Shown here piece after piece: positions 15,803-52,087 of a stretch of DNA of 64,000 bases (positions within the stretch are counted from its first letter, which is position 1; every line of letters begins with the position of its first letter). Origin of the DNA: Oscillospiraceae bacterium (GTDB lineage Bacteria > Bacillota > Clostridia > Oscillospirales > CAG-272); NCBI GenBank assembly GCA_015063535.1, contig SVTY01000002.1, positions 16,034-80,033 on the forward strand. The letters run 5' to 3'. The position numbers were made by a program, and so were the translations under genes. Under the pieces are notes generated by a model. It saw only the letters and a program-made list of their open reading frames with translations. It was not told where the DNA came from and did not search any database.

Positions 15803-15850
15803 GTTCTTTTTTCTTTTAAAAAAGAACCAAAAAAGAAAATGAAACAAATT
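15803..15850 (+). repeat. A/T palindrome + AAAAGAAAA block (modules A+B), short variant
   Basis: GTTCTTTTTTCTTTTAAAAAAGAAC followed by CAAAAAAGAAAATGAAACAAA. Confidence 0.7.
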
Positions 15851-15994
15851 TTTGCTTACTTTATTTTTTATACAAACCTTAAAGATAATCTTTTCAGAGT
15901 TTTCTTTTGCTTACTTTATCTTTTTTGCAAACTTTAAAGATAAATTTTGCAAAGTTTTCTTTTGCTTACTTTTCTTTTTCAAAAGAAAAGTAAG
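15848..15994 (-). repeat. ~55-bp tandem units ending in modules B and A
   Basis: TTTTCTTTTGCTTACTTT restarts at about 15848, 15900 and 15955. The reverse complement of about 15890-15994 is nearly identical to 49614-49715. Confidence 0.75.
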
Positions 15995-15995
15995 A

Positions 15996-16022
15996 CGCAT
16001 CCTTCGCATCCTTCGCATCCTC
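15996..16022 (-). repeat. 9-bp tandem CGCATCCTT x3 (module D)
   Basis: On the minus strand this reads GAGGATGCG AAGGATGCG AAGGATGCG immediately after, and overlapping, the AraC stop codon. Confidence 0.8.
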
Positions 16023-16842
16023 ACACATCCTTGGATTTTGTGCGGTAGGCACTAGGAAGCTCGCCCACGAGTCGGAGGAAGGTACGGGAGAAATAGGATT
16101 GATTGGCAAAGCCGCAGGCACGTGCGACCTCGCCCACGGTCATCTGATCCTCCGCCAGCAATGTTTTTGCTTTTTCACAGCGGATCTGATTCACATATGC
16201 CACGAAGGTATAGCCGGTAATACGCCGAAATTCTCTGGCAAAATAAAATTTACTCAGCCCCACGTGCATTGCCACCTCATCTAAAGAAAGATCCCGATGA
16301 CTTTCGGCACGGATATATCCGATAGCGTACTTGATCGAAGCCAGCAAGCGGGAATCGGAAAGAGGAGTCTGTCCGACATGCCCGTAACGGCGGCAAAGCA
16401 GGACCATCAGATGCAATACAAGAGCCCGAATCGCCTGTACTCGGTACAGCGATTCTTCCTCAGAAAAATATTCATCTGCGATCTGTTCGATCAAGGCATA
16501 CAGCTCCTCATCCCGAACCCATGAATCAAAGCGAATCGCATTGGTATCAAAATGGTTGGCAATACAAAAGGATCGATCAATGATCAAACAGTAAAAGCTG
16601 ATCCCCTCTTCCGAAAGCATGGTATGCAGACATCCCGTATTGATCACGGCGATCTCTCCCACCGTTACGGAAATGGGCAGCTCGCCGCCCATTACCACCC
16701 CGCTTCCCCGAATGGGAACGAAGAGCTCAATATTTTCATGCCAGTTTTCCAGCCCCAAGCGATGGTGAGGGCGATAGGTAAAGCGATGCAGGATCAGCGG
16801 TAAGCGAGGATCCTTCATACGGTGGGTCTCATATTTACTCAT
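16021..16842 (-). CDS. AraC family transcriptional regulator (cupin sensor + HTH)
   Basis: ATG at 16842 preceded by GGGAGG; the track's longer start is TTG. C-terminal AraC HTH ('YFAREFRRITG', 'GFANQSYFSRTF'). Divergent from the sugar isomerase genes. Confidence 0.85.
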   Translation of the reverse strand: MSKYETHRMKDPRLPLILHRFTYRPHHRLGLENWHENIELFVPIRGSGVVMGGELPISVTVGEIAVINTGCLHTMLSEEGISFYCLIIDRSFCIANHFDTNAIRFDSWVRDEELYALIEQIADEYFSEEESLYRVQAIRALVLHLMVLLCRRYGHVGQTPLSDSRLLASIKYAIGYIRAESHRDLSLDEVAMHVGLSKFYFAREFRRITGYTFVAYVNQIRCEKAKTLLAEDQMTVGEVARACGFANQSYFSRTFLRLVGELPSAYRTKSKDV

Positions 16843-16992
16843 GGTTCCTCCCAAAAAAGCAAGATTGTGTTAAATCGGAGCAAAAATTTAGTCTTGACTT
16901 TTTCCTTATTTTATTATACAATAAAATAGAACAAAAAGCAATGGTGTGCTTTTAAAAATTTTAAAAATTTTATCAAGAGAGGAACAAATACC

Positions 16993-17847
16993 ATGTATAA
17001 TTTTCCCATCGGCGTCATTATCGACTCCTTCCGTACCGATACCCGTACAGCGATCCAAAAGGCAGCGGCGCTGGGTGCCGACGGCATCCAGATGTACTCC
17101 ACCAGAGGAGACAACTGCCCCGAAATCCTGACCCCCGAAAAGAGACGGGAGCTTTTGGATTTTGTCAAATCCCACGGCTTGCGTTTTTCCGCTCTGTGCG
17201 GTGACTTGGGCAAGGGCTTCGGAAATCCCGAGCTGAACCCCGAGCTGATCGAAAAATCCAAGAGAATTCTTGACCTTGCCAAGGACCTGGAGACCGACGT
17301 TGTTACGACCCACATCGGTGTCGTTCCCGAGGATCCCACCCATCCCCGCTACGGCATCATGCAGGAGGCTTGCTTTGAGCTGTCCCGCTATGCCGACAGC
17401 GTAGGCGCCCATTTTGCCATCGAGACGGGTCCCGAGACCTCTGCCAACCTCAAGCGATTCTTGGACGGTCTGCACTCCACAGGCGTGGCAGTCAATCTGG
17501 ACCCCGCCAATCTGGTCATGGTCACAGGCGACGATCCCGTACAGGCAGTGCATAACCTGAAGGATTACATCGTACACACCCACGCCAAGGACGGCGTGAT
17601 GCTCCATCGCACCAACCCCGAGTACATCTATCATGTAACACCGAAGCCGGAGGAAATCGAAGGCATTACCTTCTTCCGAGAGGAGCCCCTTGGAAAGGGC
17701 TCGGTCGACTTCCCCGCCTACCTGAAGGCACTGGAGGAGATCGGCTACAAGGGCTTCCTGACCATCGAGCGGGAGGCAGGTCCCGACCCCGCAGGAGACA
17801 TCACCCTGGCAAAGAACTTCCTGACCGACATTATAAAAAACAACTAA
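16993..17847 (+). CDS. sugar phosphate isomerase/epimerase (xylose isomerase-like TIM barrel)
   Basis: 284 aa with 'THIGVVPE', 'FAIETGPE' and 'HTHAKD' motifs. Confidence 0.75.
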   Translation: MYNFPIGVIIDSFRTDTRTAIQKAAALGADGIQMYSTRGDNCPEILTPEKRRELLDFVKSHGLRFSALCGDLGKGFGNPELNPELIEKSKRILDLAKDLETDVVTTHIGVVPEDPTHPRYGIMQEACFELSRYADSVGAHFAIETGPETSANLKRFLDGLHSTGVAVNLDPANLVMVTGDDPVQAVHNLKDYIVHTHAKDGVMLHRTNPEYIYHVTPKPEEIEGITFFREEPLGKGSVDFPAYLKALEEIGYKGFLTIEREAGPDPAGDITLAKNFLTDIIKNN

Positions 17848-17863
17848 AACAGGAGAGCATTCC

Positions 17864-49664: not shown

Positions 49665-49723
49665 TTATCTTTAAAGTTTGTACAAAAGATAAAGCAAGCA
49701 AAAGAAAACATTACAAAAATTAT

Positions 49724-49792
49724 CTTGAAAGTTTTTGAAATTCTTAAAAACTTTTTTCAAAAAGTTTTTAAGTGGGGGATGGGGCAAAGCCC
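49724..49792 (+). repeat. 70-bp double-hairpin element (module C), copy 2
   Basis: TTGAAAGTTTTTGAAATTCTTAAAAACTTTTTTCAAAAAGTTTTTAAGTGGGGGATGGGGCAAAGCCCC. Ends 16 nt upstream of the remB ATG. Confidence 0.85.
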
Positions 49793-49807
49793 CAAAAAAT
49801 ACGTTTT

Positions 49808-50071
49808 ATGTTCTTACATGTAGGAAACAACAAAAATATTTATGCACGGGATGTGATCGGAATTTTTGATATGGACACAGCTACGCTATCGTCTGTTACC
49901 CGAAAATATCTGAGCGAGAAGCAACGGCAGCTATTGGTGGAAACAGCGGCGGTAGAGCTTCCGAAATCCTTTATTTTATTTGAGGAGAACGGTCTGTACA
50001 AGGTTTGTTTTTCTCCTCTTTCCTCCTCGGCACTCAGAGGACGGATCACACTTGGCATCAGCAATCTTTGA
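49808..50071 (+). CDS. remB: DUF370 protein (RemB/YaaB family)
   Basis: 87 aa from ATG 49808. 'MFLHVGNN...VIGIFD' is typical of DUF370, in the conserved position between recF and gyrB. Confidence 0.8.
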
Positions 50072-50091
50072 AAGGTACGGTAAAAAGCAAA

Positions 50092-52026
50092 ATGGAAAAC
50101 AACACCCATCACGGATATGATGAAAATCAAATACAGGTCTTGGAGGGATTGGAGGCGGTTCGGAAGCGTCCCGGTATGTATATCGGTACGACCTCCATCC
50201 GCGGTCTGCATCATTTGGTCTATGAGATCGTGGACAACTCCATTGACGAAGCATTGGCAGGCTATTGCGACAAGATTTTAGTCATCATCAATCCCGATAA
50301 CAGTGTGACGGTAGAAGACAACGGACGGGGTATTCCCGCCGCCATTCACCCGAAGCAGGGAATCCCTACGCCTGAGGTAGTGTATACCATTCTCCACGCC
50401 GGCGGAAAATTCGGCGGAGAAGGCTACAAGATCGCCGGCGGACTTCACGGAGTGGGTGCTTCGGTGGTGAACGCACTGTCTGAATGGGTGGAGCTGGACG
50501 ATTGTTATGAGGGACGGAGATATACCGAGCGCTTTGAGAGAGGACGGGTGGCAAGAGCCTTCCGCGACGAAGGAGAATGTCCTCAGCGTCCTCACGGCGT
50601 GCGGGTGACCTTCAAGCCAGACCCGACCATTTTTGAGGAAACGGTTTTTGAATATGAGATTTTGGCAAACCGTATGCGGGAGCAGGCGTTTTTGAACGGC
50701 GGTATTCGCATCGTTTTGCGAGATGACAGAGGTGAGGAGCCTATTGAAAATGAATATCACTATGAGGGTGGTATTCGGAGCTTTGTTTCCTATTTGAATG
50801 AGCATAAGCATTGTGAGCTGATTCATCCCGAGGTCATTTATATGAGAGCCGAAAAGGGCTCCAGTGTAGCAGAGATCGCTCTGCAATACAATGATAGCTA
50901 CAATGAGATGTTGATGACCTTTGCTAACAACATGAATACCATTGAGGGCGGTACCCATGAAACAGGCTTTAAATCGGGTCTGACAAAGGTACTGAACGAT
51001 TATGCCCGCAAGGCGGGAATTTTGAAGGACAGCGATAAGAACCTGTCGGGTGAGGATGTGCGTGAGGGACTTTGCGCCATCGTCAGTGTGAAGCTGGAAA
51101 ATGCCCAGTTTGAAAGCCAGACCAAGGCAAAGCTTGGAAACTCGGATATCCGTACCTTGGTGGAGAACACCATGGTGACCAAGCTCGGAGAATTTTTTGA
51201 GGAAAATCCGTCGGTTGCCCGCGCTATTTTGGATAAGGCACTTGCCGCATCCCGTGCCCGTGAGGCGGCGAGAAAGGCAAGAGAGCTGACCCGCCGTAAG
51301 GGACTTCTTGAGGGTTCTTCCCTGCCCGGCAAGCTGAGAGATTGCAACGAGAGAAATGCGGAATTGACTGAGCTGTATCTGGTAGAGGGAGACTCCGCAG
51401 GAGGTTCGGCAACACAGGGACGAAATTCCCGCTTCCAAGCCATTCTTCCTCTGAGGGGAAAGGTGCTAAACGTAGAAAAGAGCCGTTTGGATAAGGTATA
51501 TTCAAACCAATCCCTGATTCCCATTATTCAGGCGTTGGGCTGTGGGATCGGTGAGGATTTCGATATTGCAAAGCTTCGCTACGGTAAGATCATTATTATG
51601 GCGGACGCGGACGTGGACGGATCGCACATTCGGATCCTGCTTCTGACCTTCTTCTTCCGTCATATGCGGAAGCTGATCGACGACGGACATGTGTATCTGG
51701 CACAGCCGCCTCTTTACCGTGTGTATAAGCGGACAGGAAAATCCAAGGAATATTATGCCTTCTCCGATGCCGAGAGAGATAAATATATTGCAGAACTGGG
51801 CGGCACCAATGTGGAAGCCGACCGCTATAAGGGTCTTGGTGAGATGGATGCCGAGCAGCTTTGGGAGACGACCATGGATCCCGAAAAGCGTACCCTCTTG
51901 AAGGTGACCACAGAGGACGCTGTAGCTTGCGACGAAATGTTCTCCCTTTTGATGGGCGATAAGGTCGAGCCACGCCGCATCTTTATCGAAGAAAACGCAA
52001 AATTCGCCGAGAATTTGGATATATGA
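50092..52026 (+). CDS. gyrB: DNA gyrase subunit B
   Basis: 644 aa from ATG 50092 with '[13 protein letters not shown]', '[10 protein letters not shown]', '[11 protein letters not shown]' and '[12 protein letters not shown]' motifs. Confidence 0.97.
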
Positions 52027-52034
52027 GGGGATGC

Positions 52035-52087
52035 TCCTTACTTTTCTTTTGAAAAAGAAAAGGAAGCAAAAGAAAACAAAACAAAAA
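52035..52087 (+). repeat. modules (D)-A-B after gyrB
   Basis: GGGGATGC, then CCTTACTTTTCTTTTGAAAAAGAAAAGGAAG (imperfect), then CAAAAGAAAACAAAACAAAAAT. Confidence 0.8.

Follow-up and report, generated by a model that had tools for sequence, protein, structure and literature searches.

The window analysed here, a 64,000-nt stretch of DNA from an Oscillospiraceae bacterium (GenBank assembly GCA_015063535.1, contig SVTY01000002.1, positions 16,034 to 80,033), carries seven copies of an A/T-rich palindrome with a purine tail that we call module A. Module A is a previously undescribed short repeat of an uncultured gut/rumen Ruminococcaceae lineage that occurs patchily in other Clostridia, and no description of it was found in the literature. 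An earlier reading of the same DNA (the sequence-only reading) had recognised a palindrome family with compensatory changes close to stop codons. Beyond this we find that the tail mirrors the right arm of the palindrome, which is triplex geometry, that the element belongs to a larger mosaic as one of its modules, and that it is widespread in other genomes. Our preferred explanation, held with about even confidence, is a dispersed repeat of the kind represented by repetitive extragenic palindromes (REPs), bacterial interspersed mosaic elements (BIMEs) and BoxC.

Anatomy of module A and the mirror rule of its tail

The core of module A is TTTTCTTTT-NN-AAAAGAAAA and its tail is CAAAAGAAAAC. The search pattern TTTTCTTTTNNAAAAGAAAA has six exact matches in the window, at 15970, 31843, 35553, 46805, 49619 and 52042, and none in 100 dinucleotide-preserving shuffles of it; the seventh, at 15803, departs from the pattern in that its right arm is truncated. 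The palindrome family is thus real, with seven members instead of the eight originally counted, as the supposed variant at 30224 is a hairpin of module C (described below) and lacks the purine tail.

On the oriented strand the order from 5′ to 3′ is an outer arm of 4–6 nt, T(a)C T(b), a loop of 2–4 nt, A(b)G A(a), the second outer arm, one base and A(a)G A(b), with loop 1 measuring 0–4 nt overall (14 nt in one copy) and loop 2, formed by the outer arm plus one base, 5–8 nt. The inner arms are strictly homopurine/homopyrimidine with a single central G:C pair. The outer stem is of mixed composition and complementary over 4–6 bp on every copy in the window (GTAC/GTAC twice, CTTAC/GTAAG twice, CCTCC/GGAGG, GTTC/GAAC and CTTAC/GGAAG, the last of which, in copy g, includes one A.G mismatch). 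A (C)A4-6GA4(C/T) tail follows all seven copies on one side only. The palindromes span 30–36 nt with 0–5 G:C pairs out of 13–16 in their stems, and the predicted RNA folding energies of the window hairpins range from –7 to –19 kcal/mol. All are extragenic or overlap just the last codons of a gene, with seven copies in the 64-kb window and several per metagenome-assembled genome (MAG) elsewhere. The window as a whole is ∼50% G+C, with a G+C content at third codon positions (GC3) of mostly 0.5–0.7 in coding regions and A/T-rich spacers.

Copy a (15803..15840, plus strand) is of arm class (6,4), given as (a,b), and has a truncated right arm and an A6GA4 tail; it does not follow a stop codon and instead stands just upstream of a gene start, 39 nt from that of a minus-strand 1152-aa gene. 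It is the inverted, degenerate partner of copy b (15954..15994, minus strand; CTTAC-T4CT4-GA-A4GA4-GTAAG-C-A4GA4-C), which is found 27 nt past the stop of an AraC-family gene. Copy c (31838..31878, plus strand) carries the CCTCC/GGAGG outer stem. Copy d (35546..35591, plus strand; class (6,4), outer stem GGTAC/GTACC, tail A6GA4) begins 18 nt past the murA stop and has a hairpin with a T-tract downstream, at 35641-35663, while copy e (46799..46843, plus strand; class (6,4)) begins 24 nt past the dnaA stop, on the margin of the dnaA-dnaN origin region. In copy f (49614..49654, plus strand) the left arm codes for the final eight codons of recF (YFSFEKEK) and the recF TAA stop is part of the right outer arm GTAAG. 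Copy g (52037..52077, plus strand) begins 10 nt past the gyrB stop. The stop codons, checked by family assignment and open reading frame (ORF) coordinates, are AraC-type 16021, eda 30189, murA 35528, dnaA 46775, gyrB 52026 and recF 49640-49642, which bears out the stop proximity reported earlier for these genes.

The compensatory exchange of closing base pairs holds well beyond the window. We counted pairs in 46 unique copies using our own script, register-anchored at the junction of inner and outer stem (MAFFT misaligned run-length variants). Outer pair 2 is A:T in 34 copies, T:A in five and C:G in five, so that 44 of 46 are Watson–Crick, and outer pair 4 is Watson–Crick in all 46 (T:A 31, C:G 7, G:C 6, A:T 2). 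Both are far above the means of 28 and 23, respectively, obtained with shuffled partners. Related copies inflate these counts, nonetheless several pair types occur at each position. G.U versus A.C mismatches are too few to tell which strand folds.

The arm lengths allow a stricter test of the tail, as 24 of 55 unique copies have arms other than (4,4). In 21 of these 24 the tail is the (a,b) mirror and in none is it the direct repeat (b,a), compared with a mean of 2.9 and a maximum of 10 mirrors in 100,000 shuffles. All seven bacterial arm classes, (3,4), (4,3), (4,5), (5,2), (5,3), (5,4) and (6,4), fit the mirror rule. It is also kept in antisense, promoter-upstream and origin-region copies, and is therefore independent of location in a 3′ untranslated region (UTR). 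If the tail acted as an alternative Watson–Crick partner of the left arm, as in a switch, a direct repeat would be needed in the asymmetric copies, and this was never seen. A mirror repeat cannot originate by templated copying, cannot be read by a symmetric protein, and is in the wrong register for Watson–Crick pairing with the left arm.

Judged from the sequence, the mirror tail is in the register that a third strand would require on a homopurine-homopyrimidine duplex. The three blocks T(a)CT(b), A(b)GA(a) and A(a)GA(b) are each 8–11 nt long, within the 6–15 nt required of triplex motifs, in the seven window copies and about 50 elsewhere. The third block runs antiparallel in register with the purine block in the 21 of 24 mirror cases, and the loop lengths agree with those allowed (1–6 nt in ITxF, 0–10 nt according to Hoyne et al. 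2000). Four classes of intrastrand triplex motif were defined by Holder et al. 2015 (PMC4666352). The putative triplex layout of the top strand matches the definition of class II (purine motif, reverse-Hoogsteen), and that of the complement, where the third strand would be a parallel pyrimidine strand, matches class IV (T.A-T with one C+.G-C).

Position at gene ends and distribution among genomes

The tail gives each copy an orientation, and among 39 pattern-found copies ∼29–31 follow a long co-oriented ORF, with the stop codon lying anywhere from 24 nt inside the element to 54 nt upstream of the core. The clustering past co-oriented stops is thereby borne out. The usual spot is 0–30 nt past the stop, which often abuts the outer arm directly. 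One copy begins 2 nt past a tRNA-Ser gene, so that the element goes with the ends of genes rather than with translation itself. In loci chosen via RecF, blind to the element, the independent sites number seven sense versus five antisense; the antisense copies either adjoin promoters, the origin region or a ribosome-binding site, or make up the second half of an inverted pair. The bias in orientation is genuine, though with exceptions. Orientation set by replication was excluded for the window, where copies c and d follow genes despite lying on the other replichore by GC skew (just two cases). Short ORFs annotated across elements in public records were disregarded, as they are AT-rich and not conserved.

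A hairpin just past a stop codon resembles an intrinsic terminator. Module A differs in having an almost pure A:U stem, without a G+C-rich portion, followed by C-A4-6-G-A4 in place of a 3′ U-tract, and in not being the terminal signal, as true terminators often lie further downstream. Thirteen of 50 copies (among them those of L006, L009, L062, L067, L074, L085 and window copy d; L-numbers denote loci from other genomes) have a canonical GC hairpin with T-tract no more than 170 nt past the tail, and the remaining copies include ones between cistrons (gyrB-gyrA, recF-orf87) or upstream of promoters, which argues that the element is not the terminator. The sequence-only reading was right that canonical intrinsic termination is unlikely here and that an ordinary terminator exists in the same window (copA, 45234-45261), but the non-canonical terminator class it also offered is disfavoured by these downstream signals, and the element is not a new kind of transcription terminator. 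We also considered as the real terminator a small upstream hairpin formed by GGATGCG repeats (the G-module, below) together with the U-rich left arm, which a scanner flags at 16012-15992 and 52024-52040, and excluded it because in many copies the stop abuts the outer arm and there is no G-module (L089, L208, L209).

Relatives of the window show both retention and turnover of the element. After gyrB it is present in six species (the window, L206, L207, L208, L209 and L089, with RecF identity to the window of 88–68%), with the outer stems CTTAC/GGAAG, GTTAC/GTAAC, GTAC/GTAC, GTTAC/GTAAC, CTTAC/GTAAG and CTTAC/GTAAG, respectively. After recF it is found in the window, L206, L210 and L211 but not in L207-L209, in which the ribosome-binding site of the next gene stands immediately past the recF stop. 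After dnaA only the window and L206 have it. The element at the recF site always starts right past the invariant Tyr368 codon, resulting in the ending YFSFxKEK-stop; L211 has TCC TAC...GTAGG versus TCT TAC...GTAAG in the others, so that a silent change of the Ser codon is accompanied by a switch of the stop from TAA to TAG. The filled and empty recF and dnaA sites amount to an insertion polymorphism between species, as in miniature inverted-repeat transposable elements (MITEs), and comparison of the filled and empty recF sites gave no recognisable target-site duplication. Arm variants are genome-specific: (6,4) occurs three times in the window, (5,4) in L206, and (4,3), there with CGCG as its loop, in L210 and L211. 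Over 54 nt, copies d and e differ by a single mismatch (98% identity). Six contigs that encode the same DnaA are 100% identical across the aligned dnaA-dnaN interval.

A pattern scan of one genome per species returned at least 119 loci, and among the matches listed about 35 have the full hairpin and tail. These come from Oscillospiraceae, Clostridia, Eubacteriales, Christensenellaceae and Selenomonadaceae MAGs of yak, sheep, goat, cattle, mouse and human guts, with a local G+C content of 36–66%; many short contigs end at or beside the element. The rest are chance matches in A/T-rich genomes or look-alikes from DPANN archaea. In archaeal MAG loci (DPANN and others: L007, L021, L022, L029, L031, L047, L061, L064, L087), T4CT4-N2-A4GA4 is followed 8–17 nt on by a third A4GA4 block, and one look-alike is a mirror (6,3) variant. 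Some of them lie past tRNA-like 3′ ends, at which ARAGORN called no tRNA; the T-runs may be nothing more than archaeal terminators on the two strands.

The 80 metagenome loci (568 kb) of relatives at 36–70% RecF identity, collected by RecF alignment search, hold zero copies, pointing to a patchy distribution. A pattern scan of 2.9 million viral contigs did not find the element, and BLAST against phages and plasmids gave no matches, to which the low-complexity filter may contribute. The sole Rfam match at gathering score in the window is a T-box leader elsewhere, and a search of 49560-49860 up to E=10 gave no relevant hit.

The surrounding mosaic and other features of the window

Module A is one unit of an intergenic repeat mosaic that also comprises modules G, B, C, D and E. 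Inverted pairs are found in the window (15803 + 15954-15994) and in the parA-parB spacer of L113, and tandem arrays occur as well. The G-module generally consists of tandem GGATGCG(A) octamers immediately past stop codons. In the window it is represented by three GGATGCG with 9-nt spacing (GGATGCGAA units) immediately past the AraC-family stop (15996..16020, minus strand), by three GGATGCG octamers preceding the module C hairpin at 30224 (30201-30223, plus strand) and by GGATGCGAGGAATGCG (31821..31837, plus strand). GGAYGCG repeats with a period of 8–9 nt are found in 1–3 copies at or after stops also in L025, L043, L051, L067, L108, L119, L206, L209 and L210, and we take them to match the ARGGAUG core of the CsrA-binding consensus. 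The composite at 17335-17720 of L210 (370-nt spacer) has 9-bp inverted ends, TAGGATGCG / CGCATCCTA, formed by such repeats.

B units are 55 nt long and combine a degenerate hairpin with the same purine tail as module A. Two of them occupy 15850..15953 (minus strand), each consisting of TTTATCTTT..AAAGATAAA and then G(T/C)AAGCAAAAGAAAAC, and another (49665-49709) is followed by a partial second unit within 49655..49725 (plus strand). Tandem arrays of 55–71-nt units ending in GCAAAAGAAAAC are present in L211 (7422-7900), L030 (3557-3770), L103 and the window (15850-15953); they are minisatellite-like expansions of tail plus degenerate hairpin.

Module C is an A/T hairpin found at 30224..30255 (plus strand; TTTAAGAAAC.../...GTTTCTTAAA), at 30379-30410 and, together with the G-rich hairpin D, at two further sites on the plus strand. 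In the first of these, 49743..49793, a module C hairpin (49743-49772) and hairpin D GGGGCAAAGCCCC (49781-49793) stand just upstream of an 87-aa ORF (orf87), and in the second, 52112..52162, module C (52112-52141) and hairpin D lie upstream of gyrA. The pair after gyrB is kept in relatives with covariation, the module C hairpins of L206-L209 having compensating changes (CAAAAGAAAC, TTTAAGAAAC). In the module C family (CTTAAAAACTTTTT / AAAAAGTTTTTAAG) a partial direct copy of the right arm precedes the hairpin, permitting alternative pairing. Hairpin D, GGGGYAAYGCCCC followed by an A-run, is present at 30418-30430, 47309-47321, 49781-49793 and 52150-52162, 15–40 nt ahead of the starts of kdgK, dnaN, the 87-aa ORF and gyrA, and may be a 5′-end stem-loop of the downstream message. 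The module E hairpin GGGACAGGCGTCCTCGACTGTCC occurs at 31939-31961 and 35641-35663 in the window and also in L006, L025, L051, L078 and L119, in either orientation and with a covarying variant, GGGACCGACGTCCTCGGCGGTCC. It is matched over 29–35 nt at 97–100% identity in L006 and L025, whose genes are only ∼67% identical to those of the window (murA DNA, L006).

The dnaA-dnaN spacer (46880-47300) has repeated TGTGGAAAA / TTTTCCAT(A) motifs resembling DnaA boxes and an A/T-rich run (47253-47290), consistent with oriC, and the sign of the GC skew switches near 44 kb. The sequence TGTTTCACGTGAAACA, which we take to be the parS consensus, occurs in four exact copies, at 60345-60360, 61254-61269, 62172-62187 and 62207-62222, on either side of ORFs that can be aligned as DNA with the parA/parB region of L113; this is consistent with an origin-proximal window. 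A T-box leader (Rfam RF00230, 104 bits) spans 35780-36032 (plus strand) upstream of an ABC-type substrate-binding gene at 36125, and its promoter (35735-35763) is downstream of module A copy d and hairpin E. In L206 (88% RecF identity; 1178-5223) copA stands directly past murA. The window has ∼7 kb extra at ∼35.7-42.6 kb, holding the T-box and ABC transporter, a low-GC (GC3 0.31–0.40) MvaI/BcnI-type restriction gene and a 726-aa methyltransferase-like gene, and this segment is probably an inserted island. The genes at 22896-23984 and 24010-25083 are adjacent paralogues with 72–83% DNA identity over repeat segments and a repeat spacing of 1099 nt.

Readings of the element and their meaning

Several known systems share part of this anatomy. 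BoxC/TMECO of E. coli, CCCTCNCCC-N3-6-GGGNGAGGG-N3-GGGNGAGGG, is intergenic, multi-copy, sometimes arranged in inverted pairs and of unknown function (PMC4666352). Like BoxC/PIT/TMECO, module A has three ∼9-nt blocks on one strand (pyrimidine, loop, purine, loop, second purine); like BoxC/TMECO it is intergenic, multi-copy and very well conserved, sometimes forms inverted pairs, has no known transposase and varies in copy number between relatives. Unlike the G/C-rich TMECO it is A/T-rich (A.A-T or T.A-T triads with a single G), carries an extra covarying outer stem of 4–6 bp that doubles as the second loop, and has a third block that strictly mirrors the arm-length variants. It is also biased to the 3′ sides of genes in gut Bacillota, whereas TMECO has no such bias and belongs to Proteobacteria. 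With REP/BIME/REPIN it shares the form of extragenic palindromes of 30–45 nt in many copies, placed between stop and terminator or between cistrons and often <15 nt from the stop, and with REP/BIME the mosaics with other short motifs and inverted pairs. It differs from REP/BIME in its A/T-richness, weak stems, purine tail and a core common to very different genera. REP elements go with a REP-associated tyrosine transposase (RAYT, a Y1 HUH enzyme) and a conserved GT[AG]G head; the right outer arm of module A often starts GTA(A/G), but as part of the stem. Like MITEs it is small, non-coding, multi-copy and present or absent at the same site in relatives, and some composites have inverted TAGGATGCG / CGCATCCTA ends; in contrast to them, neither a target-site duplication nor a parent transposon was found, and its core unit is only ∼45 nt.

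The reading that we put at about an even chance is that module A is a REP/BIME/BoxC-like dispersed repeat constrained by a folded single-stranded state. In this model copies would spread and be homogenised within genomes through a folded single-stranded DNA state, which would keep all three blocks in register wherever a copy sits, and the element would persist mainly in the tolerated niche just past stop codons. There it would be transcribed into the 3′ UTR as an AU hairpin which, like REP, may act as a weak barrier to 3′ decay or as an obstacle beside the stop codon. Purine-motif triplexes do not form in RNA (PMC4666352), and a sense transcript accordingly cannot read the mirror rule. As the full anatomy is kept at all locations, with a tail that sense RNA cannot use, the constraint is most likely on the DNA or on the element's own copying. 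The sequence-only reading had offered several roles; the best fit among them is a dispersed or mobile repeat that lives in 3′ UTRs, and the terminator class is disfavoured.

Several observations weigh against this explanation. Retention after gyrB in six species, down to 68% RecF identity, and the co-orientation of about 80% of pattern-found copies with the upstream gene suggest host benefit rather than pure selfishness. No transposase/RAYT gene, target-site duplication or terminal cleavage motif was identified, in genomes that were not scanned whole, and the phage, plasmid and viral collections hold no matches that would explain horizontal spread. Since the outer arm is needed as a triplex loop, the outer stem and an in-register triplex are mutually exclusive and two alternative states must be assumed, and A-rich purine-motif triplexes are weak. 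Finally, subfamily copies are not independent events, so that the statistics overstate the number of independent changes.

It is possible, if doubtful, that the geometry reflects more than a mode of copying, and that module A is a widespread, hitherto unrecognised class of elements in Bacillota whose intramolecular triple helix forms and is under selection in vivo, either as H-DNA or an intrastrand triplex on the non-template strand of the DNA, or as an RNA resembling the element for nuclear expression (ENE) on the complement. In one version of this reading the element would work at the ends of genes in an orientation-specific way, either by restricting read-through or by alternating between its hairpin and triplex forms. 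The complement has the U-rich, U-rich, A-rich order of the MALAT1 and PAN ENE triple helices, with 9–11 potential U.A-U triples and a central C+.G-C, a length near that of MALAT1. In contrast to these, it would be read from antisense transcripts only and lacks a stem-loop between the two U-rich strands; such an RNA is hypothetical here.

A host-selected RNA element that punctuates operon mRNAs is a serious rival, although we consider it rather unlikely. Its AU hairpin would shield the upstream mRNA against 3′-to-5′ exonucleases, the single-stranded A-rich tail would be an entry site for endonucleases of the RNase Y type, and hairpin D would shield the downstream 5′ end. The placement of most copies 0–30 nt past a co-oriented stop, the copy 2 nt past tRNA-Ser, the positioning of the element between stop codon and canonical terminator, and hairpin D ahead of dnaN, kdgK, orf87 and gyrA all agree with such a role, as do same-site retention across six species and the order of stop, module A, tail, module C, hairpin D and ribosome-binding site that is kept after gyrB in several of them. 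However, it leaves unexplained why the tail mirrors the arm, as sense RNA is unable to form a purine-motif triplex, and why the full anatomy is kept in antisense and promoter-upstream copies. The stems are weak (–7 to –19 kcal/mol), and the blind sample has just seven sense versus five antisense sites.

We regard as improbable an orientation-specific transcription attenuator, or 'diode', in which, once the RNA hairpin has formed and the polymerase transcribes the purine-rich tail, the displaced purine-rich non-template strand would fold with the hairpin region into a triplex or stabilise an R-loop, slowing or stopping the polymerase in the sense direction only. The purine blocks are on the non-template strand in most copies, and homopurine tracts on this strand are in the orientation that blocks transcription in vitro. 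A DNA triplex on that strand would agree with the mirror rule, and in ∼70% of copies the next 170 nt contain no canonical terminator. Conversely, 13 of 50 copies do have one downstream, others lie inside operons that need downstream expression (gyrB-gyrA, recF-orf87-gyrB), and the purine tracts are short (9–11 nt) and A-rich, so that any triplex would be weak; BoxC had no terminator activity when tested (summarised in PMC4666352). A duplex-DNA binding site for a dimeric nucleoid-associated protein or regulator that recognises the palindrome is very improbable. In its favour, the inner arms are conserved across genomes of 36–66% GC and the core is a perfect palindrome. Against it, the outer stem shows covariation and not conservation, the loop varies freely, arm lengths span seven classes, and the mirror-image third block is not equivalently readable by a chiral protein. 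The dimer site and A-tract bending were excluded on grounds of symmetry and phasing, by reasoning only.

Since BoxC/PIT elements were described, the evidence on whether intramolecular triplexes form and matter in bacterial cells has been biophysical. Module A allows sequence evolution to be used as the test, as its third block tracks the other two in mirror register, which Watson–Crick templating, protein dimers and chance are unable to produce. If the in vivo triplex reading is true, the three-way covariation of both arms and the mirror tail over at least seven variant classes would be natural comparative evidence for Hoogsteen/reverse-Hoogsteen pairing under selection in living bacteria. The element also provides a ∼45-nt natural sequence suited to the study of hairpin-triplex switching and of REP-like effects on mRNA in Gram-positives. 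It alters the C-termini of real proteins, RecF ending in the element-encoded YFSFxKEK, it accounts for many contig breaks in the assemblies concerned, and the family marks a large set of uncultured gut/rumen Clostridia.

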